A DNA stretch of 64,000 nucleotides, from the NCBI GenBank assembly GCA_028712475.1, contig JAQTQB010000004.1, positions 67,368 to 131,367 on the forward strand, written 5' to 3'. Positions 4,701 through 38,070 of this stretch are shown here, piece after piece. Position numbers and translations under genes: made by a program. Under the pieces are notes generated by a model. The model did not search any database and was not told the DNA's origin. It worked only from the letters and a program-made list of their open reading frames with translations. This stretch comes from Verrucomicrobiales bacterium. GTDB taxonomy: Bacteria; Verrucomicrobiota; Verrucomicrobiia; Limisphaerales; UBA11358. Position 1 is the first letter of the stretch, and each line of letters begins with the position of its first letter.

Positions 4701-5190
4701 ACGGAGCCGGTTGACCGTGAGCGCGCACAAACTCGAACCGAAAAGAGTTTCGCCCTGGCTCAAGCCGGAGGGAACCCGACGCTTCACGCATTGTGCCTTG
4801 CCCGGCAGGGTTGTCCTCAACCAACGGTTGGCTCACGAAATCAACGTGTCCGCGACCCGCCGCCAGCCGCCCCTCCAGCCTCACACGCTGGCCGAACCCA
4901 ATATCTGCGTTGGGCAGCGGCAATTCAAAACGCGCCGCGCCGGTTTCATCCTGCAGCACAAACGCCGTGCCCGCCGAATTCACCCAGGTTACCACGCCGC
5001 TTAGCTGCGCCAGCCCGCTGATGGAATTGCTTCCACGACCCAGGCGCAGCGCCTCGCCCGCATTCGTGAAAACCAACGGGACATTCTGTGCCACGTCCGC
5101 TGGTTCAACTGTGGCCGCTGCCACGCTCAAGGCGCAATACCAGAGCAAACCCAAAAGCGGCTTTCTGCATATTACCAAGGACAAGTTCAT
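1768..5190 (-). CDS. Sensor histidine kinase (HisKA_3 type) with a very large predicted periplasmic domain
   Basis: H-box RISRDLHDDLGSSLTGI. HATPase_c motifs EALNNAVRHSHA, DNGRGF and GNGLGNMRQRL. One TM helix (LTLAGVLCGVLLLAFGWIFLL) precedes the kinase core. The start is set at ATG 5190 (signal-like MNLSLVICRKPLLGLLWYCALSVAAA), but the ORF is open to 5253. Confidence 0.9.
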   Translation of the reverse strand: MNLSLVICRKPLLGLLWYCALSVAAATVEPADVAQNVPLVFTNAGEALRLGRGSNSISGLAQLSGVVTWVNSAGTAFVLQDETGAARFELPLPNADIGFGQRVRLEGRLAAGRGHVDFVSQPLVEDNPAGQGTMREASGSLRLEPGRNSFRFEFVRAHGQPAPSVFFAGPDEARCRLEPANLSYRTAEGNWAAGAEFRSFRGTWKTLPNFERWLPIATGTATNFDAGTVDSSYDLALEFRGSFEAALAGTFQFWVQAREHYRLYVNEQPVRVVEAGPSALPVPIEIRPGQVITEQEDCRWAEAAGTVSSVGFHAGQAWLELVADGSRLELEVERAQGWDTALLLKSRVRVTGVCSARLNPAGQRVAGAMMVPHPGLVRIEQLPLSAWASFPALSLTNLLASDGPKPGSRVRIRGQVQEAGSIDGIKLGDPTNVIRVRTVGTNLAVKGENVEVLGEVCVLPGGGVELTNAFWRLTGENWPQAWSNNPPLTSIEQIRLLSPEELGRRPWVRVRGVVTCNRTKVLATIQDGTSGISCDFAQLQGEALQPGDYVEVIGFVDRGNFGPTLSGAWAFPLGQAGLPEPLKPGWEQLMNGSLDQQWVEVHGVAQQIEGGTNLTLKIKDGEIAVMMFQSKPDELERLQNSIVRVRGVVGPVCDAQGKIQRGALWVSSPAFVTVEESASAPVSAPLKSILELFRYDPRGANSFFRVRVRGQVVHAGNEESFLMDGTNGLRFIPQQGAKFKVGDTVEVVGFPELGGYSPLIQEAMVQQIAPGELPPAAQIGIPELLAGLHDATRVQVEGIVVNETVIQSDQVLEFQTGQRIIAARLGRQLGRLPSVEVGSRVRLTGVFVSHARRAMSGAGSESFELLLNSPGDLVILASPSWWTVRRGLTLAGVLCGVLLLAFGWIFLLGRRIEERTKQLEHAIRQRELAERRHASEAERARISRDLHDDLGSSLTGISLLASVGVANHSNLDARTAWRLKAIAGKARTLVTALDTIVWAVNPEADGLQVFADYLSAYAQEFITDSGLVCRFKIPMEFPARRVEGRLRHGLLLAVKEALNNAVRHSHANEIEFGVNLEADCLKIEIADNGRGFDVSTAAGGNGLGNMRQRLADLGGECQISSSKATGTIVRLIIPLPANTA

Positions 5191-5382
5191 CTGGTGGGGG
5201 CGGTCAAGCCGCACGGTGTGGGTTTTTAGCCGTCCGTAAGAACCATGAGGCACGCGTTGTCATGCTTTATGTATGGACTGGAATTTTACCGTGTCAATTT
5301 TCAAATGCAGGACTAGTCACGAGCAGACTCGCAACGATGGCTAGATGGCTCAGTTTCAGAATCTGCATTTTTTACTGACGTC

Positions 5383-5490
5383 TCACGGTTTGATGGTTGA
5401 GGGTTGAAACAAGTTGGTTTGCGGGTTCTGAACCTGCCACGAGGCGGGCAAGAAAAATCAAACGCAACGCAAACCAACGCGGGAAAGCAT
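5383..5490. repeat. Solo relic of the 5' end of the IS4-family element (matches 8240..8347)
   Basis: tctcacggtttgatggttgagggttgaaacaagttggtttgcgggttctgaacctgccacgaggcgggca..aaccaacgcg aligns by eye (about three quarters identical) with the leader and first codons of the IS4 transposase relic at 8240..8347. The start codon is lost and there is no ORF. Confidence 0.6.
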
Positions 5491-5508
5491 GTGCCTGACC
5501 CGCCACAA

Positions 5509-6615
5509 CTAGTGCGGAAACTCCTTGGAGGTGGCCAGGGCGATGACATGACCTTGATCACCGCCGGCGCAGTAGAAATGATAGACCACGCCATCGTGCT
5601 TGATGACCCAGGGCTTGTGGGCTAGCCCCTTGTCCCAAGGCTCCGACGGCTCCACCAGATGCGGCCCGGTCCACTTGGTCCAGTGAACCAGATCGGTGGA
5701 ACAGGCAAACGTGTCAAACGTGCCAGGCTGCCAAAAAGCCCCGAAGTAAAACATCACCCATAGATCGCCCATCTTCACGATCTGCGGATCGCCGCTGATG
5801 CCATGTTTTTTTTCATCGCCGTTGGCGACCACTGGATCTTTGCCAAAACGCTGCCAATGAATCATGTCATCGGACACCGCCATGCCGATCCGCTCGCCGG
5901 TCTTGCACTTGCCGTTGTAGAACATGACAAAGGAATGGCCCAGCGTCCGGGCCTTGTCCCAGATGATCTGGCTTTTGTAGAGCGTCAGCGATTCAAATTC
6001 ACGCACATCCGGCTGCGTCCGGCTCAACACCGGGTTTTCCGCGAGGGACGTCCATTCCCGCGCTTCGGTGGGCGTCTTCGTCCACGCCAGGCCGATCGCC
6101 AGCGGATCGGTCTCGTAGCCTTGCAGCGCCCCGCCGATGTAGGACATCCAATATTTGCCATCGTAGGTTTGCAGTTCGCTGGTGCCGCCCCACGTCGGGT
6201 CGCACAGCGCGATGCCACCGCTCAACTGCCAGCGATCCCATCCGTTGGTCCGGAAACTTAGGATTTTCCCGATCTTCTCCCAATGCAACAGGTCGGCACT
6301 GCGGGCGAGGAACGTCTCGTAGCCAACATTCTTGGTGCTGCCAATGTAAACCATATACCACTGATCCCGCTGCCGGAAGATGCTGGGGCAATCCACCAAC
6401 TGGTTCGTCTCGCCGCGGATGACAATGCCATATTTGAAGGGCGTTTTGACCTCCTCATAGACTTGTTGCATCCGTTCGATCGGGACAGATTCGCCCGCCG
6501 CCGCATCGTTGGTTTGGCTCGTCTCCGCGAAACCGGGGAGGGACAGGTAGGACAGGGATAGCGATGCGAGCACCCAACCCACCCGTCGTGACAGCCGTTG
6601 TTCCAGGCTTCTCAT
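5509..6615 (-). CDS. Secreted beta-propeller glycoside-hydrolase-like protein (GH43/GH32/GH130-type fold, family not resolved)
   Basis: 368 aa with an N-terminal signal peptide (VGWVLASLSLSYLSLPGFAETS). Blade-like segments repeat (DQWYMVYIG.., GKYWMSYIGG.., SFVMFYNG.., DLWVMFYFG.., DGVVYHFYCAG) with W/H-W-x-K motifs (LLHWEKIG, MIHWQRFG, LVHWTKW). The family assignment is only by resemblance. Confidence 0.55.
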   Translation of the reverse strand: MRSLEQRLSRRVGWVLASLSLSYLSLPGFAETSQTNDAAAGESVPIERMQQVYEEVKTPFKYGIVIRGETNQLVDCPSIFRQRDQWYMVYIGSTKNVGYETFLARSADLLHWEKIGKILSFRTNGWDRWQLSGGIALCDPTWGGTSELQTYDGKYWMSYIGGALQGYETDPLAIGLAWTKTPTEAREWTSLAENPVLSRTQPDVREFESLTLYKSQIIWDKARTLGHSFVMFYNGKCKTGERIGMAVSDDMIHWQRFGKDPVVANGDEKKHGISGDPQIVKMGDLWVMFYFGAFWQPGTFDTFACSTDLVHWTKWTGPHLVEPSEPWDKGLAHKPWVIKHDGVVYHFYCAGGDQGHVIALATSKEFPH

Positions 6616-6660
6616 ATCGTTCCTTTTCTGTGGCGGGCCTGCGTGCGGGTTCGGTGGAAT

Positions 6661-7506
6661 TTATTGGTCAAGGGCCGCCGCAGCTGCCGGATTGGCGGCC
6701 CAACTCGCCACGGCATCGCCCTCGGCTCCGGTGTGCGCGAGATTGTCATTGTTCCAGCGACGGCGCCACGTATTGTTTGCCGGATCCACAACCTCGGGTC
6801 TCTTGGCGGTTTCGACATGGACATCCGCCATAAGCAAGTTAATGCGATAATTATGCCGGTTGGCCGGCCATTGGGAATGGCCATAATCTTGAGCGGTGGG
6901 ATCCAAGTTGGCCGCAAACGAGATCAGGTCTGGATTTTCCGCGCCTTTGACATCTGCCATGACAATCATCTCTGAAGGCTGCTTGATATTGGATTCGCGC
7001 ACAGCACCTTTGTAGTAGCCACCATCCACATCGCCCCCCAAACCCAACTGGGGAACATGATTAAGATCCAATCCCCAATCGTTGTAGCCATAAGAAAAAC
7101 GGGAAGCGGGTGTGACCGTGAACTGGCTGTAAATTCCATTTTCTCCAAGCCCTCCGAGCGTCTTGTTGATCGTTGGATCCCAGGCATAATCCGCAGGCGC
7201 ACCGGCGCAGCTAAACGCCCCACGATTATTCCCCATCAAACTCTGGATCCGGGTGGGCCAGACGTAGCAACCTCGAGCCACCGACAAACAACCGGGATAT
7301 TGGTTGTAATCCCCGACATACATTGTGAGAGCGAGGCCAATCTGCCGGAGACCATTCATGCAGGAGGCTTGCTTGGCCTTCGCCTTGGCTTTGGACAGTG
7401 CCGGCAGCAACATGGCCGCCAAGATGGCGATGATAGCGATGACTACCAGCAGTTCAATCAACGTAAAGGCAGTCCGGTGGGCGGGCGGTGGCGGGCTGGT
7501 TTTCAT
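6661..7506 (-). CDS. Prepilin-type N-terminal cleavage/methylation domain protein (DUF1559-like pseudopilin)
   Basis: The N-terminus [32 protein letters not shown] is the class III signal/methylation motif. 281 aa. The C-terminal region ..[15 protein letters not shown] resembles the conserved tail of this PVC-abundant family. Confidence 0.88.
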
Positions 7507-7537
7507 TAAATCAAGTTTGGAATGATTGGGGGGATGC

Positions 7538-7933
7538 TCATCGTGCGGGCGCGGTTACGTTTCTGCCCCGGGAGTTTTGGGTCTCCCGGATCACCTTGAC
7601 GGCGGCGGGGTCGTTTTTTTCGGCTGCCGCCCAGAGTCGTTGTCCAAATGCGGCGCGTTCCTTTTCCACCGCCTGCTTTTGGTCGTCGTTCAATTGCATC
7701 TGCCGCAGGCTTTCCAGAAGCTTATGCGTGGTGGCATAGTCATTGGCTTTGTCCGCCGCGAGGGCCTGTTCCCAGGCCAGCTTCACTTCCGCCGGGGCGC
7801 TGTCGAAGGCTTTGCTTTCGCTTGCCGTCAATTTGAGTTGGTTTTGCCCACAGCCAGCCCCGACCAAAAGCGCGAAGATAAAAATTGCGCCACGCGCGAC
7901 CCAGGCAGATTTGAACAACGGTTTTGGTTTCAT
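7538..7933 (-). CDS. Small lipoprotein of unknown function
   Basis: Start at ATG 7933: [31 protein letters not shown] has a lipobox (LVGAGC). About 131 aa. It lies 31 nt upstream of the pseudopilin-like gene on the same strand. The longer ORF to 8137 runs into the 143-bp repeat and is not credible. Confidence 0.6.
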
Positions 7934-8076
7934 GACAAAAAATATTAACCCTTCACGCCATCCGCAGTCGCACCCATTTACCAGAACCGAAAATGCCGCC
8001 TTGCGATTGATTCCTGCGCGCCACAGGCGGCGACCATGGACGACACGACGCGCCCAACAGCCTGCGCCCAGCAAGA

Positions 8077-8219
8077 TCTGTTGGTTTTGCCAGATTGCAA
8101 TTGACCCAAACACCTGCAATCCAAAAGCAGCGGCCATTTGGGCGGTTTACATCGCATGATTTCAATATGATTTTAATCGCAGTTCAAAGGTTTCACCATC
8201 TGTCAAATGACGGATTTTG
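8077..8219. repeat. 143-bp dispersed repeat, copy 2 of 2 (partner at 185..327)
   Basis: See 185..327: 119/143 identical. It lies directly left of the IS4-family relic. Confidence 0.85.
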
Positions 8220-8310
8220 TAGATATAATTACACAGGAGTCCCACGGGTTTAATGGTTGAGGGGTAAAAAGAGTTGGCTTGCCGCGTGTGAACCTGCCAC
8301 AAGGCAGGGG

Positions 8311-8995
8311 ATGAATAAAACCACAACGCACAAGCCAACGCGCAGCAGCTTCGCGCTCCTGCACCAGCTCTGCGATCTTATTCCGGCGCATCTGGTGCCC
8401 CGGCTGGCGCGGGACACCGGCGTTGCCAAACGCGCCCGCACCTTCACGCCGTGGAGTCATGTCGTGAGTCTGCTCTACGCCCAACTGACCCACGCCATCG
8501 GACTCAACGATGTTTGCGACGCCCTGCGTTTGCATTCGGGACCGCTCTCGGCCGTGCGTGGCGCGACCCCGCCCAGCAAGAACGCCCTCTCCACCGCCAA
8601 CCGGGAACGTTCCGCCCAAATGGCCCAAGACCTCTTCTACGCCGTCCTCGGCCATCTGGAAAAACTCCACCCCGGTTTTGGCCGGGATCGCCGTCCACGC
8701 TTTGCCTTCCGTTTCAAACGCGTGATCCATCTGGTGGACGCCACCACCATTCAACTGGTCGCCCGCTGTCTGGACGGGGCCAAACATCGCCGCCGCCAAG
8801 TGCCACCTCCGGCTCGACCTGCAAACCTTCCTGCCGCGCTTCGCCATCGTGGACACCGCCGGCGAACACGAAAGCCTGCGCGCCCGCGAAGTGTGCGCCG
8901 GCGTGCGGGCCGGGGAGATTGTCATCTTTGACAAGGCTTACATGGACTTCACCCATCTGGCCGACCTGTCCGCCCGCGCCGTGTTCTTGTTGACC
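8311..8995 (+). pseudogene. IS4-family transposase (DUF4372 N-terminus + DDE), frameshifted and 3'-truncated
   Basis: MNKTTTHKPTRSSFALLHQLCDLIPAHLVPRLARDTGVAKRARTFTPWSHVVSLLYAQLTHAIGLNDVCDAL.. and ..FRFKRVIHLVDATTIQL match the DUF4372/IS4 layout. The frame shifts near 8790 (the continuation LDLQTFLPRFAIVDTAGEHES..GEIVIFDKAYMDFTHLADLSARAVF is in another frame). Homology stops near 8990. Confidence 0.75.
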
Positions 8996-9105
8996 CCGCA
9001 CATTTTGGCGGCTGTCAACGCCGGCAAGTCATGGGCAAAACAACGCAACACGGCTCGAAAATCCCGCTCCAAAACGCGCGCCCGGCGCAAATACTTGTTT
9101 CGCAT
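8977..9105 (-). pseudogene. N-terminal fragment of an IS1595-family transposase
   Basis: MRNKYLRRARVLERDFRAVLRCFAHDLPALTAAKMCGVNKNTA matches the characteristic IS1595 N-terminal HTH segment. Only about 43 codons remain, and they abut the truncated IS4 relic. Confidence 0.55.
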
Positions 9106-9167
9106 TGTCAGTCCCAGTGTTTCAGCAGGTTCACACCCGCTCAACTAGGAAAGACCCAAAATAATTT

Positions 9168-10433
9168 TCAATCCGGCACCAGTTTCCGCACATCTTTCGG
9201 CAGCCACCAGCGCAGCAGCGGGCCGCACATGGCGGTGGTCAGCAGCGCCATGATGACGAGCATCGTGAACAGCGCGGGCGTGAGCAGTTTCAACTCAAGG
9301 CCGACATTGATGGCAACGAGCCCCATGAGCGCGCGGGTGTTCATCAACGCAGCGATGCTGCCGGCTTCGCGCGGCGGCTGGCCGGTAAGGCGCGCACCGA
9401 GGTAGCAGCCGCCGAGCTTGCCCGCGACGGCGGCGGCCAGCACCAGCCCGCAGGCGAGCCAGGCTTCAGGCGTCTGGAGCGAACCGATCTTGGTGTTCAA
9501 GCCGGTGTTCGTAAAAAAAATCGGGACGAAGGCGACGAACACAACATCGGAAAACCGGTCGCGCCAGGCCTTGACCAGTCCGGTTTCCTGATGCAGCGAA
9601 ACGCCGAATAAAAATGCGCCGAAGATGACGAAGATTCCCAGTTCATGCGTGACCAGGCCGCTGGCGAAAAGCGTGATCAACATCAACGCCAGAAAAGAGA
9701 GCGGCAGTTGATTTCCATTCGCATCGGCCACGCTTTTCCGCCACAACGCCCGCAGGCGCGGGCCGACGATTTTTTGCAGGAACAGGAAAAACACAGCGAT
9801 GCCCGCAAGTTGCAGCAACAGATGGCCGAGGTTGAAATTCGTGGTGACCATCGCAGTCGCAAGGCCGAGCAGAATCCAGCCGATGACGTCGTCAATCGCC
9901 GCCGAACTGATGCCCATCGCGCCGATGGCAGTGCGTTCGAGCTTCATCTCCAAAAGAATCCGGCCCATGATCGGCAGCGCGGAAATGGAAAGCGCGATGC
10001 AGAGGAAAAATTGAAAGCCGAAGCGCGGCGTCTCCGGCGCGAAACGGTCGTGCAGCCACGGGCCGATGGCCAGGCCGCATAAAAACGGCACGATCATGCC
10101 AAGCGCGGAAACCGTCAGAACAGTGCGCGAGCGCGTCCGCAGATGGCCGTAGTCAAATTCCATCCCGACCTGGAACAGCAGAAACACCAGGCCGAGCTTG
10201 CCGAGAAGCTGGAGCGATTGCTGCGTTTCGTGGGGGAACAACACCGGCCAGTCCGCCGGCCAGACCAGGCCGAGCGCGGACGGGCCGAGCAGAATTCCCG
10301 CGAGAATTTCGCCGACGGCTAGCGGCTGGCCGAAGCGTTTGCCGAGCCGGCCAAACGCCCACGCAGCGGCGATGATCACCACCCATTGAATTAAAACGAG
10401 CTTGAAATGTCCCTCAATGGCTTCTGGATTCAT
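9168..10433 (-). CDS. Cation:proton antiporter (CPA2 / Kef-type Na+/H+ exchanger family)
   Basis: Polytopic membrane protein with about 12 hydrophobic segments. The N-terminus is family-typical (LIQWVVIIAAAWAFGRLGKRFGQPLAVGEILAGILLGPSALG). The start is set at ATG 10433, after a small hairpin; the ORF is open to 10481. Confidence 0.85.
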   Translation of the reverse strand: MNPEAIEGHFKLVLIQWVVIIAAAWAFGRLGKRFGQPLAVGEILAGILLGPSALGLVWPADWPVLFPHETQQSLQLLGKLGLVFLLFQVGMEFDYGHLRTRSRTVLTVSALGMIVPFLCGLAIGPWLHDRFAPETPRFGFQFFLCIALSISALPIMGRILLEMKLERTAIGAMGISSAAIDDVIGWILLGLATAMVTTNFNLGHLLLQLAGIAVFFLFLQKIVGPRLRALWRKSVADANGNQLPLSFLALMLITLFASGLVTHELGIFVIFGAFLFGVSLHQETGLVKAWRDRFSDVVFVAFVPIFFTNTGLNTKIGSLQTPEAWLACGLVLAAAVAGKLGGCYLGARLTGQPPREAGSIAALMNTRALMGLVAINVGLELKLLTPALFTMLVIMALLTTAMCGPLLRWWLPKDVRKLVPD

Positions 10434-27556: not shown

Positions 27557-30500
27557 TCAAACCGCCCACTCGGCGCACAGCAGCCTGGCCTGCTCCAAAA
27601 CGGTTTGCGTGGCCTTCTCCTGCTTGTCTGGCGGATAGCCGTATTTGCGGAGGATGCGGCGGACGAGGACACGGATTTGAGCCTGGGCAGATTCGCGCAG
27701 CGTCCAGTCAATCGTCACGCTTTTGCGGACGTGTGAGACTAACTCGCGGGCGATGTCCTTTAATGTGGGTTCACCAAGAACTTTCACGGCGCTGTCGTTC
27801 ACTTCCAACGCGTCGTAAAACGCAACTTCATCATCCGTGAGGCCGAGGTCTTTGCCGCGCTTATGGCCTTCGCGCATCTGCTTGGCGAGTTCGATGAGTT
27901 CTGCAATGACCTGCGCCGCTTCAATGGTTCGGTTTTGGTATTTGCGGATGGTGGCTTCCAGCATTTCGGCAAACGAGCGGGATTGAACGAGGTATTTCTT
28001 CGAGCGGATTTTCAGTTCGTTGTTGAGCAGCTTTTGCAGCAACTCGACGGCAAGGTTGCGCTGGGGCAAATGCTGGACTTCCGCCAGGAACTCGTCGGAC
28101 AAAATTGAAATGTCCGGCTTCTTCAACCCGGCGGCGTCGAAGATGTCGATGACCTTGTCGGATGAAATCGCGCGGGAAACAATTTGCCGGACGGCCAGCT
28201 CCAATTCTTCCGGTGATTTTCCGCCGCCTTCGCTGATGCTCTTGGCCAGCACGGCGCGGACTTCCTGAAAGAATCCGACTTCATCACGAATCTCCAATGC
28301 CGAGTCATGCGGCACAGAGAGAGCGAACGCCTTGGACAGTTCCGTGACTGCCAACAGGTAGCGCGGCTTGCCGTCTTTTTGCTGCAACACATGCTCGGCG
28401 GCTTGTGCAATGAGCGGCAGCCTCTTTGCCGCTGTTGCCTTGGCCGCGCCCTCGTAATCAAACCCGTGCAGGATGGCGCAGACCTGCTCGTATTTCTCCA
28501 GCATCACGGCGACGGCTTCTTCCTGATCCAGCGTGATGTCGCCTTTGCCTTTGCTGTTCGTGTAATCGGCCAGCGCCTGTTTCAATTCCTCCGCCAGTCC
28601 GAGGTAATCCACCACCAAGCCGCCGGGCTTGTCTTTGAAAACCCGGTTCACCCGCGCGATGGCCTGCATCAGGCCGTGACCGCGCATCGGCTTGTCCACA
28701 TACATCGTGTGCAGGCTCGGCGCATCAAAGCCGGTCAGCCACATGTCGCGCACGATGACGATGCGGAACGGCTTCTTCGGATTCTTGAACGCTTTCGCCA
28801 GTTCCTCGCGCCTTGCTTTGCTGCGGATGTGTTGCTGCCACTCCAATGTGTCGGAAGCCGAGCCGGACATGACGATCTTCATCGTGCCTTTGTCATCGTC
28901 CTCGTGATGCCAGGCCGGGCGCAGTTTCTGGATCGCCTTGTAAAGCTCCACGCAGATGCGGCGGCTCATGCAGACGACCATCGCCTTGCCTTCCATCGCG
29001 GCGTAACGCGCTTCCCAATGCTTCACCAAATCCTCAGCCACGAGCGCGATGCGCTTGTCCGTCCCGACCATCGCTTCCAGTTGCGCCCACTTCCGGCGCA
29101 GACTTTCCTTCGTGGATTCCTCCGCATCTTCCGTCACTTCTTCAAAGTTCGGGTCAATCTTCGGGCGTTCCTCCGGCTTCAAATCAATCTTCGCCAGCCG
29201 CGCCTCGTAATAAATCGGCACGGTGGCCTTGTCCTCCTTCGATTGCAGAATGTCGTAAACGTCAATGTAATCGCCGAACACGGCCTGCGTGTTCTTGTCG
29301 CCACTTTCAATCGGCGTGCCGGTGAAGCCGATGAACGACGCCTTGGGCAGCGCATCCCTCATGTGTTTGGCGAAGCCGTCAATAAAATCGTATTGGCTGC
29401 GGTGCGCTTCGTCAGCGATGACGACGATGTTGCGCCGGTCGGATAGCAGCGGATGCTTGCCGCCTTTTTCATCGGGAAAGAATTTCTGAATCGTGGTGAA
29501 CACCACCCCGCCGCTGGCGACGTTGAGCAACTCGCGCAAATGTTCCCGGCTCTCCGCCTGAACGGGTATTTGCCGGATCAACTCTTTGCAAAAGGAGAAC
29601 GTGTCGAAAAGCTGGTCGTCCAGATCGTTGCGGTCGGTGAGCACGACGATGGTGGGATTCTCCATCGCCGGGTGCTGCACGATTTTTCCGGCGTAGAAAA
29701 CCATCGAAAGACTTTTGCCGCTGCCTTGCGTGTGCCAGATGACGCCCGCCCGTCTGTCGCCGATTTGATTCGTAGCAGCCGACGTGAGTCGGCTCTGACT
29801 TTCCGCTGGGGAATTAGAATGAGCGGACTCACGTCCGCTGCTACCAGTTAAAGCAACCCCCGCCGCCTTCAACGTAGATTCCACCGCCTTGTTGACTGCG
29901 TGGAATTGGTGATAGCCCGCCAGCTTCTTCACGACCTTTTCGCCATCATCTTCAAAGACGATGAAGTTGCGGACCAAGTCCAGCAGACGAGCCTTCTCGA
30001 ACACGCCTTTGAGCATGGTTTCCAGTTGCAACGAACCGGGCGGCACAAGCTCCTTGCCGGTGATGGTGCGCCACGTCATGAACCGCTCCCAATCCGACGT
30101 GACCGTGCCGAGCCGCGCTTCGTGGCCGTCCGAAATCACCAGCAGCGCGTTGGAGTGGAACAGCGACGGGATTTGCGCCTTGTAAGTCTGGAACTGGTCG
30201 AACGCCTTGCGGATGGTGGCCTGTTCGTCCGCAATGTTTTTGAGTTCCAGCAGTGCCAGCGGGATGCCGTTGATGAACACCACTACGTCAGCGCGGCGGT
30301 TGAAATGGCCTTCCTCCACTGTGAATTGATTGACCGCGAGGAATTCGTTGGCTTCGGGATTCGCAAAATCAATCAGCCAGACCTTGTCGTGAACGATTTG
30401 CCCTTCGCGGTTGCGAAACTCCACGTCCGCGCCTTCAACAAGCAGGCGATGAAACGCGCGGTTGTTTTCGATGAGCGTCGGATGGCTGATGAGCCGGAGT

Positions 30501-30721
30501 TTCCGCAACGCTTCTTGCAACCCTTCCTGCGGAACCTTGGGATTCAAATCCTTCAGCTTGGTTTGCAACCGGTCGAAAAGAAAAACCTGCTTGTAATCCG
30601 CGCGCTCCGCCGCCGGTTCGCCCGGCGCAATCGCCAGTCCCGACAAAACTTCGTATCCCAGCCCACGAAGCCAGTCGAGCGCGGCATCCTCCACGACAGA
30701 TTCGGTGATGCCTTTGCTCAT
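27557..30721 (-). CDS. hsdR: Type I restriction enzyme R subunit (HsdR), with a 72-bp in-frame palindromic insertion
   Basis: 1054 aa. N-terminal nuclease region, then helicase motifs [29 protein letters not shown] and QAIARVNR. The repeat-derived segment [24 protein letters not shown] sits just before motif I. Confidence 0.95.
29772..29843. repeat. 72-bp palindromic repeat (family C) inside hsdR
   Basis: gtagcagccgacgtgagtcggctc + 24-nt spacer (tgactttccgctggggaattagaat region) + gagcggactcacgtccgctgctac. The 24-bp arms are near-perfect inverted repeats. Related copies are at 53738..53813 and 56392..56467. Confidence 0.85.
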
Positions 30722-31834
30722 TTATGCAGGCTCAGGCAGTGTTTCGCTGAATTGTAGCCGCATCCAGCCCAGCACAACCAGATTACGGATGGCGTTGGCC
30801 AGTGCCTGCTGCTTTTCCTCCGTGCGCCACGTTTTTTTCCAATCCAGAATGAACTCGTAAAGATCGCGCTCGGCAACTTCTTGCTGGGGTTTGGATCGCT
30901 TCAATTGACGGCTGGCAAACAGCACCGTCAGCACTTCCTCGGCTTGCTCGGTGTTTTTGATGCGGCTGAATAAATCCACGGTCTTGGCAATCTTCCGCTC
31001 GTGCCGCTTCAAGATTTCCTCGTATTTCGCTCGCTCCTTTTCGTATTGTGGGCCGACGCGCAACGCGATCATCTGGCCCAAGCGTTCCTCGTGCAGCCAG
31101 TTCCGGTTCGCGAAATCATGCAGCGCCAGTTTCACCTCGTCGGCAAAAGGCCCGTAGCTGCCTTTGCCAAACTTAAAACCAGTCTCGACTCCCATTTCCG
31201 TGACGACGTAGCAAATCTTTTGAAAGATCGTCCGACCCACTGGATTCGCGTAGGGCTGCTTCTCCAACTCCCGCAGAACTTCCATCAGGACAACCCACTC
31301 AGGATTTAACTTCTCGTGCTTACGACCCCGACCATCCAATTCCATCTGCGCCGGCCCGGCCAGAAAATCTTCCTCCAACTGCGTCTTTGAAGTTCCGTAG
31401 GGGGCATAGACTTCGATCTCGATGTTGAGATGCCGCAGCTTGCCATACATCAGCGGCCCGACTTCCTCCCAACTCAATCCGCCGTTGCCGCAACCGAGCG
31501 GCGGGAACGCCACGCTCTTGACGCCCCATTCCGCATGATGTTGCACGAAATAATCCAGCCCGCGCTCGATGTCCGCCAAACGCGAGGGCGACCGCCAATG
31601 ATCCTTCGTCGGAAAATTCACAATCAGGATTCCTGAACGGTCACGGAAAAGATACGGCTCGCCCAGCCGCACTTGCTTCCGTTCACACCGTTCGGCGTAA
31701 TCCTCAAACATAGCTGGATAGCGCTTCTTGAATTCCTGCGCGACGCCCTTGCCCATGATGCCGACGCAGTTCACCGTGTTCACCCGGGTCTGGGCTTGGC
31801 TTGCAAACAAATCGCCTAAGAGTGCTTTGAACAT
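30722..31834 (-). CDS. darG: DarG antitoxin (N-terminal macrodomain ADP-ribosylglycohydrolase + C-terminal DarT-binding region)
   Basis: N-terminus ..VNTVNCVGIMGKGVAQEFKKRYP..LIVNFPTKDHWRSPSRLADIERGL..VAFPPLGCGNGGLSWEEV closely follows the DarG macrodomain pattern. It lies immediately downstream of the DarT-like gene. Its stop abuts the hsdR ATG. Confidence 0.88.
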   Translation of the reverse strand: MFKALLGDLFASQAQTRVNTVNCVGIMGKGVAQEFKKRYPAMFEDYAERCERKQVRLGEPYLFRDRSGILIVNFPTKDHWRSPSRLADIERGLDYFVQHHAEWGVKSVAFPPLGCGNGGLSWEEVGPLMYGKLRHLNIEIEVYAPYGTSKTQLEEDFLAGPAQMELDGRGRKHEKLNPEWVVLMEVLRELEKQPYANPVGRTIFQKICYVVTEMGVETGFKFGKGSYGPFADEVKLALHDFANRNWLHEERLGQMIALRVGPQYEKERAKYEEILKRHERKIAKTVDLFSRIKNTEQAEEVLTVLFASRQLKRSKPQQEVAERDLYEFILDWKKTWRTEEKQQALANAIRNLVVLGWMRLQFSETLPEPA

Positions 31835-31840
31835 GGCTGG

Positions 31841-32428
31841 TTATCGGAAAAACATTTGTGGACTGATGGTAATCGGAAGGCCAAAGCCCTGCGATTGTAA
31901 ATTTGCCGCCGCCGCTTCGTCCACGGCGTATGCCCCGGTCAGAAACCGTGGCTCGACACAATGCGGCACGAGCACTTCCGCACACTTTTGCGAACGGTGA
32001 CGGTAGTAGGCAATTGGGTCGTTCGCGTGCCGCCAGTCCATCGCGAAAATCGCGTCGTAGTCCAGCACCCCTTCCTGCCTCGGATGCAGGAAGCGAACAT
32101 AGTCACTCGACGCATTGCGATCCGCGAACACCACGCCGTCAATATGCCTCACTTCCGTTGACACCCGCAAGACGCACAACGTCGCCGCTGTGTCCTTGCG
32201 TTTGAAGAGCATCGGATTGCGGGCGTGAAAATAAAGGTTGGCGTATTGATGCAGCTTCAAACCACCGGGAACGTGCTTCAAGTCGCGCCGTTCCTGCACG
32301 ACCTCCAGTGCCACGGAATAATGCGGCACTTTCGCCGCGCGCTCGTTCGACAGAATCCCGAGCTTCACGACCGACGGAATGTTTTCCAACGGCATGATGC
32401 ATTGAAATTCTGTGACGCGGGCGTTCAT
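31841..32428 (-). CDS. darT: DarT (DUF4433) ssDNA ADP-ribosyltransferase toxin
   Basis: ..ERRDLKHVPGGLKLHQYANLYFHARNPMLF.., ..VVFADRNASS.., ..QKCAEVLVPHCV.. parallel the DarT motifs (H-x-Y-V-PFYF..R-x-PML, FTD.., AEFLV with the catalytic Glu). The start is ATG 32428, or TTG 32437 (a 4-nt overlap with the upstream gene). Confidence 0.8.
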   Translation of the reverse strand: MNARVTEFQCIMPLENIPSVVKLGILSNERAAKVPHYSVALEVVQERRDLKHVPGGLKLHQYANLYFHARNPMLFKRKDTAATLCVLRVSTEVRHIDGVVFADRNASSDYVRFLHPRQEGVLDYDAIFAMDWRHANDPIAYYRHRSQKCAEVLVPHCVEPRFLTGAYAVDEAAAANLQSQGFGLPITISPQMFFR

Positions 32429-32433
32429 TTCAA

Positions 32434-33369
32434 TCAAGAAGCCAGCTTGTGCTTCACATCAACCGCAAATTCTTCCTTGTTGATCTTTGAACTCAAGCGG
32501 TCGTTGTTCAAATACTTCAGTATGTTCTCAATCGTGCCTTCGTCGGCAATGATACGCCCCTTGCTGTCATAATTGAGCCCCCATTTGTCAGACTTGTTAA
32601 TTCTCCGAAGCGCCTTCAGATAATCGGGCTTGCGATAATAGGCGGAGTTCTTCACTTGTGAAAGCCTCCGAAGGCGGGTGACGTTATTGCCGATAAGCGT
32701 TGTTATGTCTTGAGCGTTGGCGAAGAACCCGAGGGTTTGGAATTCTTTAACAATTTCGTCGCGGTTTCGCTCCATCCCCTCTCTAAAGTTGAGTGCCGTT
32801 TCAAAGTTCTTTTTGTCAGCCACAAACAACACTCCATCGAATGAGAAGAAGTCAATTTTGGAATCAATTCGGAAGATCTCTCCTTGCTCCAGATCCACCA
32901 ACATGTTGTTTTTGAAAATCGCATTCACCAATTGCGATACCTCTTTGGCTATCCAGCCGGAGGAGATTTTTCTCGCTCCATACAAAGATGGCGTGTTTGG
33001 CAAATCCAGACGGGCGATATAAAGCCATGAGCCAACAAGGTCGTCGTAGCTATTTGCACCCTGAACATCTCCATTGCTGATTTGGTCAATCACCGCCTGG
33101 AGATCTGTCTCGTCTGTTTTGAGGCCCAACACATCATCATCCAAATCAGCCGTGTTGAAGTCGTATTGCCGAACGGCATTGCTGCTCAAAATTTTTCCTT
33201 TGGTAATCGTTCTTACCTTTTTTGCCAAAGCCGCATCAACGTTCACGTTCAGAACTTCGTAGTGAGCATCCCGATGAACCAACCTTCGCTTCACCACATA
33301 GAAAGACACGGTTGCATTCTGCCATGGATGGTCCTTGGCGTTCTTCAGGCTGGTTTGGAGTTGGCTCAT
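32434..33369 (-). CDS. KwaB-like (DUF4868-like) protein, candidate Kiwa effector
   Basis: 311-aa soluble protein directly downstream of a 4-TM protein. The C-terminal half (..IDFFSFDGVLFVADKKNFETALNFREGMERNRDEIVKEF..) resembles my memory of DUF4868. It is AT-richer than the flanking hsd genes. No search was run, so the family call is provisional. Confidence 0.5.
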   Translation of the reverse strand: MSQLQTSLKNAKDHPWQNATVSFYVVKRRLVHRDAHYEVLNVNVDAALAKKVRTITKGKILSSNAVRQYDFNTADLDDDVLGLKTDETDLQAVIDQISNGDVQGANSYDDLVGSWLYIARLDLPNTPSLYGARKISSGWIAKEVSQLVNAIFKNNMLVDLEQGEIFRIDSKIDFFSFDGVLFVADKKNFETALNFREGMERNRDEIVKEFQTLGFFANAQDITTLIGNNVTRLRRLSQVKNSAYYRKPDYLKALRRINKSDKWGLNYDSKGRIIADEGTIENILKYLNNDRLSSKINKEEFAVDVKHKLAS

Positions 33370-33924
33370 TTAGACTTTGGGGTTAACCGCAGTGACAAGA
33401 AATAGCTGTTCGGAAAGCTCTACGATTCTGCACTGGTCACTTGCTTTCAAACGCGGACCTTTGACCAAAAAGAAATCTTCCCTCTCTTGGCCGTTCTTCT
33501 CGTATTGAACGTCATAAAGGTTATAGCCAAGACAGGCCAAAATTGGGTTCACGAAGATGTTGTGTGTTTTAAGGGTCATCCAATACATGATGACCATGAA
33601 AAAGCCGAAGGAGAGCAGCATTTTGATGTCATCCAAGTTGATCACGAAGAACGAAACCAGATAAGGGATGCTGTAATTCACCAACTCACCAGAGCGATTG
33701 GACACTTTTACAATCTTGACTGTCGGAGTTGAGGTTTTGAGAAAGCGGACCGCAGCCCAGATGACAATGCAGGAAATAATTGAAATGCCGACGATGGGCA
33801 AAACAATTTCAGGATGCTTCAAACGCCAATCTGGAAGTTCAAAGTCTTGAATGAGAAAAATTACGGACAGCGGAGAGTATGCGCTGATGAAAATGAGAAC
33901 CGACGATAAAAAGCGGAGTTTCAT
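33370..33924 (-). CDS. KwaA-like four-TM membrane protein
   Basis: ATG 33924 (MKLRFLSSVLIFISAYSPLSVIFLI..). Four hydrophobic helices are followed by a soluble tail of about 55 aa. The start is 2 nt from the hsdS stop, and the stop abuts the next gene's ATG. The longer ORF to 34020 overlaps hsdS and was discarded. Confidence 0.5.
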   Translation of the reverse strand: MKLRFLSSVLIFISAYSPLSVIFLIQDFELPDWRLKHPEIVLPIVGISIISCIVIWAAVRFLKTSTPTVKIVKVSNRSGELVNYSIPYLVSFFVINLDDIKMLLSFGFFMVIMYWMTLKTHNIFVNPILACLGYNLYDVQYEKNGQEREDFFLVKGPRLKASDQCRIVELSEQLFLVTAVNPKV

Positions 33925-33925
33925 A

Positions 33926-35149
33926 TCATGTATTCCCTTTCTGTATTGGCACGCGCAACTCGCCCGACAGTAGCTTCGGCAGCAGCGCGTCGCGCAGCGC
34001 GGCGAGGGTGCGGGATTCAAGCAGATTGTTCCGAATGCGTTCCATCAATGGCGAAACCTTTTCTTCAAACTGCTCAACAACTGCCGCAAGCGGCAAAGTT
34101 ACTTGCACACCCGCCAACGTGTCCCGCGTGATTGTGTCGAAGACAGAACCGTGTGCGTGCTGTTGAAGCTGTGAAACAAGCGCACGCGTTACGAAATAGG
34201 AGTGGAAACCTTTCGTGCCCGCTTTGCCACGAAGTCCGTAGCACGATTGATTCATTGCCATTGGAACACCAACCAACGCGACTTTGCCAACCGTTCCGCG
34301 AGCGGAAATGATAGTGGTGCCTATTGGCAAAACTTGAGTGGACGAATTATCAACGCCCGCTTGGGTGATTTTCTTTTCCGTGTCTATCACGAACAAATCT
34401 GAACCTTGCGGCGCGTCCACAACTGAGAACCACGGAATGTCACCGCTCCAATACTCAGCCACAGAAGTTTTGGGCGTGCCGCCGCCGATGATTTCAACGG
34501 TTTCGGTGAACGGCACTTCGCGCCAGCCTTTGGGGAGGGCGGATTGGGTGGCGTCCACGAACCAGGATTTGAACAGGCTCTGGGCCAGCGCCTCCATCGT
34601 CTCGTTCATCCGCCGGTTCAACTCAATCTTGTCGTCCAGCGCACCCAACACCGAAGCAATGGCGTCGCGTTCTTTTTTGGGCGGAAGTGGAATGGGAATA
34701 TTTGCAAGATCGCGCAGGTTGAACGTTGCTTGAACCGTCGTTGTTGCGCGTGTCCCGATGAAATTCTGACTGAGAGAAGACCGCAGACAAAGCTCAACCC
34801 AACGCGATCCAATTTCCGTTCTAACCGGAATCACGCCAACAGCGCGAGCGACGTTCCAGCCTGCTAATTCAGTCGGAACAACTGCCGATTCACCGAGCGA
34901 CCCCACGAGCGTGAGAAGCACTTCACCACCACGAAGTCGTGAGCGTCTATATTTCGCTTCAATGTCGCTGGAAACACGAAGCGCGTCACCGGTTTCAATT
35001 CGCCCAAATTTGATATTGTTGACGCGAATTACTGGAACACCATTGGCAGCATGAGAACCGGGTTGAACAATGCCGTAACAGATACCGCGCTCTTTATCCA
35101 CCAAGTCGGACAACACCTGATGCTCCCAATTTTCTGGCAACGCATTCAC
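33926..35149 (-). CDS. hsdS: Type I restriction-modification specificity subunit (HsdS)
   Basis: 407 aa with two target-recognition halves. Each is followed by a conserved helical spacer (..LGALDDKIELNRRMNETMEALAQSLFKSWFVD.. and ..EKVSPLMERIRNNLLESRTLAALRDALLPKLLSGEL). GTG start. Confidence 0.9.
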   Translation of the reverse strand: MNALPENWEHQVLSDLVDKERGICYGIVQPGSHAANGVPVIRVNNIKFGRIETGDALRVSSDIEAKYRRSRLRGGEVLLTLVGSLGESAVVPTELAGWNVARAVGVIPVRTEIGSRWVELCLRSSLSQNFIGTRATTTVQATFNLRDLANIPIPLPPKKERDAIASVLGALDDKIELNRRMNETMEALAQSLFKSWFVDATQSALPKGWREVPFTETVEIIGGGTPKTSVAEYWSGDIPWFSVVDAPQGSDLFVIDTEKKITQAGVDNSSTQVLPIGTTIISARGTVGKVALVGVPMAMNQSCYGLRGKAGTKGFHSYFVTRALVSQLQQHAHGSVFDTITRDTLAGVQVTLPLAAVVEQFEEKVSPLMERIRNNLLESRTLAALRDALLPKLLSGELRVPIQKGNT

Positions 35150-35224
35150 TTCCGGCCTCCCGTTCTGAAAAGCCGGGTGCGGCGGGTGGTGGCCGCCGCC
35201 CCACGCGCGCCCGCCAGCGACCCA

Positions 35225-35325
35225 AGGGACTCCAACGACGGAAGATTACTCACGCCCGCCAGTGACTGAAGGGACTCAAGCGACGGAAAGGGGCGCTTCG
35301 TTTTGGTCGTTCGAGTCCTTGAAGT
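35225..35325. repeat. Hairpin-forming repeat built from gggact/aaggac-type units, downstream flank of the four-helix-bundle gene
   Basis: gggactccaacgacggaag .. gggactcaagcgacggaaagg .. cgttttggtcgttcgagtccttgaagtc. A related element in the same orientation lies at about 35895..35975 (ggacggaagggacttcaaggacggcgagggactgcgag..cgctttggtcgttattgtccctttagtcc). Confidence 0.65.
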
Positions 35326-35993
35326 CATTTCCACCCTCCTTGCTGGGCGCGGGCCGCGAGGCGGGCGCGGGTCATGCGTTCGCGCAGGCCGCCTTCTTTC
35401 AGGAAATCCTGTTCCAGGCGGCGGAGTTGCTGGTCGAGCAGGTAGTTGGTCACCTTGATCAAACCCACAATCACATTGGCGCAGATGGCGGGGTCGGGAT
35501 GCTCGATGCCTTTCTTGAAGGTGTCGTAATTTGCGCCGGGCGTGCGGTTGAGCCGGCGCAAGCGCTGGGCGTAGCGGTGGTCGGGCGTCCATTCCTCGAT
35601 TTTGCGGGCGCGCATGAAATCGCGGTAATCTTCGAGCAATTCCTCCTGGCTGGCGCGGGCCACGTTGGTGAGCTTGAGTTCGGTTTCCTTGGATGTGCCG
35701 CTGGCCTGGCTGCCTTCGAGGATGTTTTGTTTGCCGGAGCGCGCGGCCTGCACCATCTGGTCGTGGGTGCGGGACTTTTTGTCAACAAACCGGTCACAAA
35801 AATACTGCGTGGCCTGAAACACCACCAAGGCTTTCTGGTAGGAGAGGAGTTCCTGGTAGCCGCCGTGAGCGGGGATGAAGCCATCAGCATCATCCGGAGG
35901 AAAGGACGGAAGGGACTTCAAGGACGGCGAGGGACTGCGAGTTGCCGTCGTCGCTTTGGTCGTTATTGTCCCTTTAGTCCTTGGCTCAGGCAT
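35325..35993 (-). CDS. Four-helix-bundle protein with suffix domain (23S rRNA intervening-sequence-protein-like family)
   Basis: Core ..[80 protein letters not shown].. matches this family. The first 30 or so codons (..[22 protein letters not shown]) are read through a repeat element, so the true start is uncertain. It overlaps the hsdM stop by 8 nt. Confidence 0.75.
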
Positions 35994-37641
35994 GGCTCAG
36001 GGCTTTTAAGTTTTGCCGGATGGCTTTCTCCAGCTTGGCAGATTCCGCAAACTGCGTTTCCAGAGTCTGAATGAGCCGCTTCATCTTTTCCTCGAAGGGT
36101 TCGCCGTCGTCCTCCACATCCGCTGCGCCCACGTAACGACCGGGCGTGAGGACGTAACCGTGCGAGGAAATTTCTTCGAGCTTCACGGATTTGCAAAAGC
36201 CCGGTTCGTCCTGGTAGGGCGCGTCACTCCGTGCGCGCCGTTCACTTGTTTTGCCACCAGCGGCCGGCAGAGGACTGCCAGCCCTACCTTCTTTGGACTT
36301 CCACGCGTGGTAACAGTCCGAAACTTTTTTGATTTCCTCGGCGGTCAATTCCCGGTGGATGCGGTCAACCAGCACGCCCATTTTCCGCGCATCAATGAAA
36401 AGCGTCTCACCACGCCGGTCGCGGCGTTTGTGGTTCTTCTTGTCGCGGGCCAGAAACCAGAGGCAGACGGGAATTTGCGTGGTGAAAAACAACTGGCCGG
36501 GCAGCGCGACCATGCAATCCACGAGGTCGGCTTCAATCAACGCCTTGCGAATCTCGCCTTCGTTCGAGGTCTGCGTGGACATTGAACCGTTGGCCATGAC
36601 GAATCCCGCCACGCCCACGGGCGAGAGGTGATGGATGAAATGTTGAATCCAGGCGTAGTTGGCGTTGTTCACCGGCGGCATCCCGAATTTCCAGCGCACG
36701 TCCTGCCGCAGATTTTCGCCGCCCCAATCGCTCATGTTGAACGGCGGGTTGGCGAGAATAAAATCGGCCTTGAGGTCGGGATGCAAATCCTGCCGGAAGC
36801 TGTCGGCGTTGCGCGGGCCGAGATTGGCGTCAATGCCGCGAATGGCGAGGTTCATCCGCGCCAGTTTCCAGGTGGTGTAGTTGGATTCCTGCCCGTAAAC
36901 CGCGATGTCGCCCACGCGCCCGCCGTGTTCTTCCACGAATTTTTCCGAGGACACGAACATGCCGCCCGAACCGCAGCACGGATCGAACACGCGGCCTTTG
37001 TAGGGTTCAAGCATGGCGACGAGCACCTGCACGACGCATTGCGGGGTGTAGAACTCGCCGCCGCCCTTGCCTTCCGCGCTGGCGAATTTGCCGAGAAAGT
37101 ATTCATAGACGCGCCCAAGCACGTCCTTGGACTTCGCCGCCGATTCGTTGAAGCCGATGTTGCTGATGATGTCCACGAGTCCGCCGAGCCGGACTTTGTC
37201 GAGGCTGGGCCGGGCGTAATCGCGCGGCAGCACGCCTTTGAGCGTGGGGTTCTCGCGCTCAATCGCGCCCATCGCGTCGTCAATGACCTTGCCGATCTCC
37301 GGCGATTTGGCCCTGGCCTTGATGGTGTGCCAGCGGGCTTCGGGCGGCAGCCAGAAGACATTCGCGGCCAGGTATTCGTCGCGGTTCTCGGCGGCTTCGG
37401 CCCGTTGCGGTTCGTCCTTGATGAACCATTCGCTCTTGGGATTGGAGAAGCCGAACAGCAGTTGTTCGCGTTTTTCCTCGAAGGCGTCGGAGATGTATTT
37501 CAGGAAGATGAGGCCAAGGCAGACGTGCTTGTATTCCGACGCGTCCATGTGTCCGCGCATCTTGTCGGCGGCGGCCCAGAGCTGGGCTTCAAAGTTCAGG
37601 CCGGAGTCGTTGGACTGTTTCTGATTGTTTCCTTTAGCCAT
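35986..37641 (-). CDS. hsdM: Type I restriction-modification methyltransferase subunit (HsdM), with a 75-bp in-frame palindromic insertion
   Basis: N-terminal HsdM_N ([32 protein letters not shown]), motif [14 protein letters not shown] and motif [10 protein letters not shown]. The repeat-derived [27 protein letters not shown] sits in the C-terminal loop before [20 protein letters not shown]. Confidence 0.95.
36214..36288. repeat. 75-bp palindromic repeat (family B) inside hsdM
   Basis: ggtagggcgcgtcactccgtgcgcgccg ... ggcagaggactgccagccctacc. The first 28 nt are identical to 16435..16462. Confidence 0.85.
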
Positions 37642-38070
37642 GCAAGTCAGGCAAATCGTAAGCCGCAGAAGATTTTAAGCAAGGTCTTTGCAGGCGGCCA
37701 CCTGTAAACAAGCTGAATGTTGAAAGTTGAGAGCCGGGCGTGGGGCAAGAATCCAGACACCAGACGCCGGTCCGCGACCGTGTGCTGATCATTCGTTGAG
37801 GCCCCAGCGATGGATGCCCTCAATCCGGGAGAAGTCGGTTTCCGGTCGCACCAATGGCTTGGCGACGCCAGCCTGGCCGCCGGCCGGCACCGACAGGGTG
37901 GCAAGCCGGGGCGTTGACGCCCTGGAGGCGACAATCATTCCGGCGGACATCACGAAGGTGAGCAGTAAAATCCGGGCCGGAGCTTTCAATGATTTCTGGC
38001 GCAACATCGTCCTTATTGGAACCCGGCGGGCGAAAATCGTTCAATCATTGATGAGGCACAGGCCGGCTGA

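Follow-up and report, generated by a model that had tools for sequence, protein, structure and literature searches.

Why do an antiphage membrane pair and a toxin–antitoxin module lie back to back inside a type I restriction-modification (R-M) locus, and do the three systems work together? The question is raised by an eight-gene locus on the minus strand of the window, the whole 64,000-nt stretch of Verrucomicrobiales contig JAQTQB010000004.1 that we analysed. Between 27557 and 37641 the open reading frame (ORF) layout gives the order hsdM, four-helix-bundle gene, hsdS, kwaA, kwaB, darT, darG, hsdR. The two internal slots of the type I locus are thus filled, the hsdM–hsdS slot by the four-helix-bundle gene and the hsdS–hsdR slot by Kiwa (after hsdS) and DarTG2 (before hsdR). 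Our analysis indicates that three independent defences probably share one transcription unit here, in a type I R-M locus whose hsdS–hsdR gap is a site of exchangeable cargo. The literature on each family predicts that HsdMSR would methylate self DNA and cut unmodified incoming DNA, that KwaA and KwaB would reside in the membrane, where KwaB would bind entering DNA and block replication and late transcription, and that DarT would ADP-ribosylate thymidines in single-stranded DNA (ssDNA) as long as DarG neither undoes the modification nor sequesters the toxin. The modules would share regulation and inheritance, with no common mechanism.

A preliminary description of this DNA had assigned all eight genes, and the assignments held: every protein passed family models (Pfam, PADLOC, NCBIfam). 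HsdM matched Pfam N6_Mtase (1.4e-105) and HsdM_N (5e-26) and PADLOC MTase_I (3e-216), and its translation contains an NPPF motif (LANPPFN). HsdS gave two stretches of Pfam Methylase_S (3e-25) and matched PADLOC Specificity_I (8e-89). HsdR matched Pfam HSDR_N (1e-47), SWI2_SNF2 (1e-79) and T1RH-like_C (7e-133), as well as ResIII and T1R_D3-like, and PADLOC REase_I at 1107 bits; a DEAH box (IADEAHRSQ) was seen in the translation. The sequence features of a type I system were therefore all present: an HsdM methyltransferase, an HsdS with two target-recognition domains, and an HsdR with nuclease, superfamily 2 translocase and C-terminal assembly domain. HsdM and HsdR are identical to MDD5140208.1 and MDD5140201.1, respectively, of a Verrucomicrobiales metagenome-assembled genome (MAG). 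A low-complexity stretch rich in Ser, Ala and Thr (residues ~290–320 of HsdR; window 28800–29900) lies between the nuclease and translocase domains and is skipped by the family models.

The two middle ORFs, called a Kiwa-like pair in the preliminary description, are bona fide KwaA and KwaB by Pfam and PADLOC models, with kwaB directly after kwaA. KwaA matched PADLOC KwaA (PDLC00215, 1e-46), 12 more KwaA models and the solved KwaA in PDB 9mrg (6.6e-6); an identical kwaA on another contig (L004, below) carries a precomputed annotation as Pfam PF28043 KwaA. Hydropathy analysis of KwaA gave three strong hydrophobic segments, a fourth falling under the threshold used. KwaB scored 108 bits against Pfam KwaB (7e-31; gathering score 26.3) and matched PADLOC KwaB (PDLC00235, 1e-95) over its full length. 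As in the Kiwa of Escherichia coli, two genes, kwaA and kwaB, make up the unit, KwaA being the membrane protein and KwaB the DUF4868 protein. The window pair differs in that its KwaB clade is too distant for a sequence match to solved structures, a sequence search of the PDB having returned no match for KwaB.

DarT matched Pfam DarT (8e-28) and PADLOC DarT (6e-32) and was aligned to PDB 7omu, with caEvLVP in the window protein opposite aAcLVP in the chain. We take this glutamate to be the catalytic residue and the alanine of 7omu to be an inactivating substitution. DarG matched Pfam Macro (5e-20, residues 18–127) and PADLOC DarG (8e-92, residues 1–352); its best solved match was the DarG macrodomain in PDB 5m3i (3e-36), in which NFPTKDHWR is conserved. 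As the antitoxin is a macrodomain protein rather than the NADAR-domain protein of DarTG1, the pair is of the DarTG2 type, a distinction by antitoxin domain that follows PMC12255303.

Table 1. Coordinates of the eight genes and associated features in the window
Feature	Position	Strand	Description
hsdM	35986..37641	-	type I methyltransferase subunit, 551 aa
four-helix-bundle gene	35325..35993	-	222 aa, in the hsdM–hsdS slot
spacer, four-helix-bundle gene to hsdS	35150..35324	-	175 nt
hsdS	33926..35149	-	407 aa, specificity subunit with two target-recognition domains; starts at GTG
conserved hsdS 3' end	33926..34029	-	ESRTLAALRDALLPKLLSGELRVP followed by a cassette-specific tail; left edge of the Kiwa module
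kwaA	33370..33924	-	Kiwa membrane subunit, 184 aa, GC 0.436
kwaB	32434..33369	-	Kiwa DUF4868 subunit, DNA-binding by family function, 311 aa, GC 0.466
darT	31841..32428	-	predicted ssDNA ADP-ribosyltransferase toxin, 195 aa from ATG 32428
darG	30722..31834	-	macrodomain antitoxin, 370 aa
hsdR	27557..30721	-	type I restriction/translocase subunit, 1054 aa
candidate promoter / 5' leader	37642..37690	-	putative

The gene order and every junction given in the preliminary description were confirmed from the ORF layout and the junction sequences. The four-helix-bundle gene starts within the last codons of hsdM, an overlap of 8 nt (ATGCCTGA), and the spacer before hsdS is the sole junction with room for a promoter or terminator. 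From hsdS onwards the gaps at the five junctions are 0–6 nt, on one strand throughout. The hsdS stop (TGA, 33928–33926) is separated by 1 nt from the kwaA ATG at 33924, and the kwaA stop (TAA, 33372–33370) abuts the kwaB ATG at 33369 (TAAATG). The kwaB stop (32436–32434) is followed after 5 nt by the darT ATG at 32428; an alternative TTG at 32437 would overlap kwaB by 4 nt. As the homology of DarT with two relatives (L028 and L029) begins at the ATG (MNARVTEF/MNPRVKEF), the gene model with the 5-nt gap is the better one. The darT stop lies 6 nt before the darG ATG at 31834, and the darG stop (TAA, 30724–30722) abuts the hsdR ATG at 30721 (TAAATG). The abutting stop–start pairs at kwaA/kwaB and darG/hsdR would permit translational coupling. 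Such tight spacing is ordinary for operons; what exceeds chance is that the layout recurs in other loci, and not how closely the genes are packed. The immediate neighbours of the locus are of the housekeeping kind, ppk1 (next after hsdR) with sixA to one side and olsA with olsB to the other, and no tRNA gene was found in the whole window.

The source is a MAG, and GC falls by ~12 points across kwaAB, from 0.55–0.60 in the neighbouring genes to 0.44–0.47 in the Kiwa genes, as would be seen had a low-GC Kiwa segment been misjoined into a type I locus. Contig L004 (Logan SRR22315508), an independent short-read assembly, spans hsdS'-kwaA-kwaB-darT-darG-hsdR' in the identical layout with 100% protein identity, which argues that the join is not a chimera of MAG binning. 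In addition, three loci from other samples (L001, L005 and L007) share the hsdS–kwaA junction sequence, and nested Kiwa was also seen on a contig of 4.6 Mb (L071) and in the genome of an isolate, Sulfuricella sp. T08 (L070). An assembly chimera was therefore rejected, and we give this explanation almost no weight.

To place the layout in context, 71 loci around relatives of KwaB and DarG were annotated by reference BLAST and Pfam/PADLOC. A scan of genome contigs with KwaB alone gave three loci only, and it was an alignment-based metagenome scan that gave a usable survey. KwaB had 178 homologues at E <= 1e-10; dereplication of the KwaB sequences at 90% identity left 22 clusters. In a tblastn search of plasmid records with KwaB the relatives were <=26% identical, and no annotated context was found there for the clade. 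Kiwa lay within a type I locus, on the same strand, in 13 of the 22 clusters: that of the window with L001 and L005, three further groups (L037/38/39/42, L045/64 and L060/61), and L007, L046, L049, L050, L051, L052, L056, L057 and L066. L070 and L071 are two more nested cases. The distance from hsdS to kwaA was usually −25 to +1 nt (+31 nt in L056); other cargo lay between the two genes in L049, L052 and L070. The nesting is thus not a one-off, and Kiwa is usually found right after hsdS. The HsdR partners ranged from 70% down to 27% identity to the window HsdR, which implies that several type I families are involved. In the largest cluster (38 loci) Kiwa instead follows hsdR by 58–78 nt, as part of an extended co-oriented train that runs from a helix-turn-helix gene through the R-M genes, kwaAB and a TerB/ATPase/helicase trio to Hachiman. 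The remaining clusters were too short to judge or had no R-M gene nearby, the latter including L002 and L006, where Kiwa stands alone.

Two of these arrangements deserve description in their own right. Dozens of metagenome contigs (L008–L027, L031–L036 and others) carry a near-identical co-oriented train in the order helix-turn-helix gene, hsdM, hsdS, hsdR, kwaA, kwaB, TerB_N/TerB_C protein, BrxC/D-like ATPase, DEAD helicase, HamA and HamB (Hachiman), with variants in which DUF1016, PRTase-CE or NADAR genes are inserted in the R-M part. The island of the cultured Sulfuricella isolate (L070 3333–14072, DF967523.1) is complete, with the order hsdM, NTase_sub_bind gene, hsdS, AAA_13 ATPase gene, kwaA, kwaB, hsdR, and sits within a hydrogenase hox/hyp cluster.

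What accompanies Kiwa changed from locus to locus: the gene or genes between kwaB and hsdR were different in almost every relative. No cargo was present in L039, L049, L064 and L070. Elsewhere the position was occupied by PsyrT (L005, L068), Gabija (L001), TIR with a 168-aa gene (L037), HATPase_c_3, RhuM and DUF4268 (L038), DUF6978, DUF1828/1829 and YaaC (L042), RhuM (L050), Fic (L056), AlbA_2/HATPase_c_4 (L057), DuOB with two DUF488 genes (L060), Abi_2 (L061), DUF1016 (L046), DUF4145 (L007), and ThsB-TIR with 8xMP (L071). DarTG was found in this position in the window and in L051, where a single DarT–macro ORF follows a 169-aa gene and a TIR gene. That ORF (L051 5081–6796, 571 aa, directly before hsdR) could be a natural fusion or an assembly frameshift. 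DarTG, like Kiwa, also occurs alone (in L028). The preliminary description had proposed a shared trigger for the stacked modules; as the partner cargo of Kiwa changes in almost every related locus, such a trigger or any coupling specific to Kiwa and DarTG is unlikely. A dedicated Kiwa–DarTG partnership was accordingly rejected, the pairing being repeated only in L051 and there with other genes in between.

Three slot genes without a Pfam match, encoding proteins of 159 aa (L029 2916–3395), 168 aa (L037 7813–8319) and 169 aa (L051 3942–4451), are candidate defence genes by position; the 159-aa protein has a predicted N-terminal hydrophobic segment.

The boundaries of homology between these loci point to how the cargo is exchanged. 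With L001 (87.5% DNA identity), L005 (88.8%) and L007 (72%), homology to the window runs from 34017–34029 exactly to the kwaB stop, so in these three other Kiwa loci it sets in ~90–100 nt inside the 3' end of hsdS. This segment encodes a conserved helix (ESRTLAALRDALLPKLLSGELRVP), and the cassette-specific tail after the helix holds the ribosome-binding site of kwaA (junction sequences of the relatives were aligned by eye). The central region of hsdS is 87–92% identical in DNA to L005 and L029, and its C-terminal region 91% identical to L029. On the other side, L029/L030 have the order hsdM, hsdS, 159-aa gene, darT, darG, hsdR, with DarG 85% and HsdR 67% identical to the window proteins. In L028 the DarTG homology block begins exactly at the darT ATG and ends exactly at the darG stop; in L029 it goes on, DNA homology between the window and L029 being unbroken from darT into hsdR. 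Kiwa and DarTG thus behave as separable modules.

Scars, i.e. fragments of hsdS 3' or hsdR 5' sequence between stacked cargo genes, were present in four related loci. In L001 the 3' end of hsdS occurs a second time, as a fragment that separates kwaB from gajA; in L029/L030, 39 codons of hsdS 3' sequence separate the 159-aa gene from darT. In L037 two cargo genes flank a fusion of an N-terminal piece of hsdR with a C-terminal piece of hsdS, and in L038 an hsdR N-terminal fragment was recognised by eye. Such scars are expected if cassettes with hsdS 3' and hsdR 5' ends swap and stack by homologous or unequal recombination. Together these features point to cassette exchange by recombination at the conserved hsdS 3' and hsdR 5' ends of type I loci carrying different loads.

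For the window, homology boundaries, GC content and scars in relatives lead us to infer a stepwise history. The unbroken homology with L029 suggests that DarTG beside hsdR is older and that the hsdS side is the entry point for new cargo, and the low GC of Kiwa makes it look like the most recent arrival. An ancestral hsdS–darTG–hsdR locus, as in L029 and in the island of enteropathogenic E. coli (EPEC) considered below, would have gained Kiwa, as a cassette of low GC, next to the hsdS 3' end, entry probably proceeding by recombination through the conserved terminal segment of hsdS.

Would the eight genes be transcribed together? Promoters and terminators were sought as simple consensus matches (sigma-70), and the promoters of Verrucomicrobiales are poorly known. 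No terminator-like site was found at any junction of the eight-gene region, which contained 14 such sites against 15.9 expected from shuffles. The 175-nt spacer before hsdS gave no sign of a terminator or riboswitch-like element, its predicted RNA fold being no more stable than shuffles (z = −0.74). In related loci hsdR starts <=22 nt from the preceding gene in 15 of 17 cases, and that gene comes from >10 families. As hsdR abuts so many unrelated genes, a dedicated and conserved hsdR promoter is unlikely.

Two decayed loci point in the same direction. In L001, hsdM residues 3–116 are fused to hsdS residues 371–407 (the last 37 codons) and followed by kwaAB; in L028, hsdM residues 1–58 with 41 nt of upstream DNA are followed by darTG. 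Retention of the hsdM 5' end joined to cargo is expected if the cargo uses the hsdM promoter. The L028 case (8140–10113, from a Dongiaceae MAG) had the look of a stand-alone DarTG; the remnant that precedes it, the first 58 hsdM codons with their upstream DNA, is 77% identical in DNA to the window, and by this comparison L028 is a decayed type I locus with its promoter-proximal end kept. Just upstream of the R-M remnant in L001, a single 1424-aa ORF (4577–8851) has an N-terminal Y-family polymerase (IMS/IMS_C) together with PHP, DNA_pol3_alpha, finger and HHH_6 domains, and appears to be an ImuB-like/DnaE2-like fusion.

The segment directly upstream of hsdM (candidate promoter, Table 1) holds an extended −10-like element (TGCTTAAAAT), and L028 shares the ~41 nt that precede the hsdM ATG; a full promoter was not called in this segment by the sigma-70 scan. 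Within the 434 nt upstream of hsdM there was no TAGCTA operator; rptR was not found, and the ORFs upstream of hsdM have no Pfam match. Co-transcription of the eight genes from upstream of hsdM is plausible from these data, and a single transcript starting there is the most likely arrangement.

Several points weigh against a single transcription unit filled by exchange. Classical type I loci such as EcoKI have separate promoters for hsdMS and hsdR. The AT-richer Kiwa segment could hide an unrecognised promoter, and a promoter or attenuator might sit in the 175 nt that precede hsdS. The kwaB–darT junction of the window has no scar, so that the insertion history at this point is drawn from relatives only. 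Finally, the repeated linkage of Kiwa to hsdS in 13 of 22 clusters hints at something beyond shared regulation.

The first two of these points also favour a gene cluster in place of a single operon, with a promoter for each module inside the upstream coding sequence and hsdR independent of read-through. Promoter-like sites were indeed in excess in the region (9 found against 3.5 expected from shuffles), and coding-strand matches occur in kwaB (32662–32635, TTCACA-16-TATTAT, 10/12) and in darT (31923–31894, 9/12). Neither of these two is conserved in close relatives beyond the constraint of the encoded residues, however, and seven of the nine sites are on the non-coding strand. The abutment of hsdR to many unrelated cargo genes and the retained hsdM 5' region in decayed loci also argue against separate promoters, as does the EPEC RRDM island, where a single promoter has been mapped, upstream of rptR and hence at the island's 5' end (PMC12255303). 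The preliminary description had named internal promoters or terminators between the modules as a refutation of coupling; no terminator-like site was found at a junction, and the internal promoter-like sites are not conserved. We consider separate promoters distinctly unlikely and favour the single transcription unit.

The four-helix-bundle gene occupies the other slot of this unit. Its product matched NCBIfam TIGR04258 (four-helix-bundle suffix domain, 3e-21) and TIGR02436 (2e-5) and scored under the cut-off for Pfam 23S_rRNA_IVP. The gene is bracketed by imperfect direct repeats ~650 nt apart with 62–76% identity (35298–35329 and 35951–35982; 35219–35292 and 35896–35933), and looks like an inserted cassette. 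The adjoining spacer contains a 45-nt tandem duplication (repeat family D2, 35203–35243 and 35248–35288, 83% identity). In L037, L042, L070 and L071 an NTase_sub_bind gene takes this position between hsdM and hsdS; the gene that follows it, called together with hsdS, also has a nucleotidyltransferase domain in L070 and L071.

If transcription is shared, is function shared as well? The EcoprrI–PrrC anticodon nuclease is the classical model of a back-up that acts when restriction is inhibited, as the R-M complex controls PrrC through physical contact. Type I enzymes, moreover, cleave DNA at points where their translocation is stalled. By analogy, the embedded systems, chiefly Kiwa, might be tied physically or functionally to the type I enzyme: HsdMS(R) might hold them inactive until phage anti-restriction, or KwaB-bound DNA or forks stalled by DarT might trigger type I cleavage. 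The locus is like EcoprrI–PrrC in having a second defence gene inside a type I locus, and the embedding of PrrC in such a locus, and its control by it, is cited as established precedent in bioRxiv 10.1101/2022.08.21.504612. The prevalence of nesting in this Kiwa clade, its position directly after hsdR in the largest cluster, the mostly tight hsdS–kwaA junction, and the spread of the clade over several phyla with HsdR families only 27–33% identical to that of the window would all fit coupling.

Unlike the PrrC case, the window gives no sign of contact with the R-M enzyme, the tie being one of genomic linkage, and both Kiwa and DarTG work alone in published tests. In E. coli, KwaA and KwaB form a membrane supercomplex, whose KwaB component binds DNA as it enters and stops both its replication and late transcription; Kiwa protects when cloned alone and is reported to protect cells individually, not through abortive infection (PMC11785009). 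Two relatives from this clade (L002, L006) have no adjacent R-M genes, other cargo separates hsdS from kwaA in L049, L052 and L070, and the slot partner of Kiwa is almost never the same, leaving a Kiwa–DarTG link unsupported. Functional coupling is therefore unlikely in our judgement. The suggestion of back-up abortive infection in the preliminary description does not fit Kiwa, which is reported to be non-abortive (PMC11785009), and could still fit DarTG.

In a stronger form, this Kiwa clade would be no mere passenger of type I R-M enzymes but an accessory dedicated to them. Its placement directly after hsdS would be near-obligate across phyla and divergent type I families, and might reflect a functional partnership; KwaB-bound DNA or stalled forks could act as a roadblock for HsdR cleavage, or HsdMS could gate Kiwa. 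We regard this as distinctly unlikely. Were it true, cassettes would also be exchanged and stacked on a platform that needs no recombinase, with the hsdS 3' and hsdR 5' ends as its homology arms.

Among the closest known systems is the EPEC RRDM island (rptR-hsdM-hsdS-darT2-darG2-hsdR-M48), which is functional against phage (Zhang et al., NAR 2025, PMC12255303). There, as in the window, the hsdS and hsdR genes of a type I R-M locus enclose DarTG2, all on one strand. The window differs from the EPEC island in lacking rptR, the TAGCTA operator and the M48 peptidase (ppk1 follows hsdR), in adding Kiwa in the hsdS–hsdR slot and the four-helix-bundle gene between hsdM and hsdS, and in its host, which is a member of the Verrucomicrobiales and not a gammaproteobacterium. 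The hsdS–hsdR site was named a likely or potential recombination hotspot for defence genes in the same study (PMC12255303).

More generally, defence genes that lie inside Hma, BREX, DISARM and type I R-M systems are co-oriented in 96.7% of cases, and co-regulation was proposed (Payne et al., bioRxiv 10.1101/2024.01.29.577857). The text of that report contains no Kiwa and none of the words recombination, hotspot or remnant, and does not discuss the entry or stacking of cassettes. Unlike its guilt-by-embedding loci, the window stacks two known systems, and its relatives show scars of the flanking genes; no description of such scars between embedded cargo was found in searchable papers. Characterised Kiwa systems are stand-alone operons, often on mobile elements, with type I R-M unmentioned (PMC11785009), and no description of Kiwa in the hsdS–hsdR slot was found in the literature. 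The claim that the arrangement had not been described thus stands only narrowly, for Kiwa in this slot; embedding in type I R-M systems is in general known (bioRxiv 10.1101/2024.01.29.577857, PMC12255303). The locus is a new combination within a known kind, to which the recurrent Kiwa–hsdS linkage and the scars are modest additions.

If the locus is one transcription unit, a single promoter would determine in what amounts restriction enzyme, membrane-anchored DNA-binding defence and toxin–antitoxin pair are made, and the locus would be a compact natural test case for the co-regulation of layered defences. The comparative result may outweigh the locus itself: one Kiwa clade lies mostly in type I loci, near hsdS, with a second cargo that is ever-changing. 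The survey also yields, in its three uncharacterised slot genes, candidates for new defence functions, and the scars and the linkage provide a testable model in which embedded defences would enter and accumulate by homologous recombination through the ends of R-M genes.

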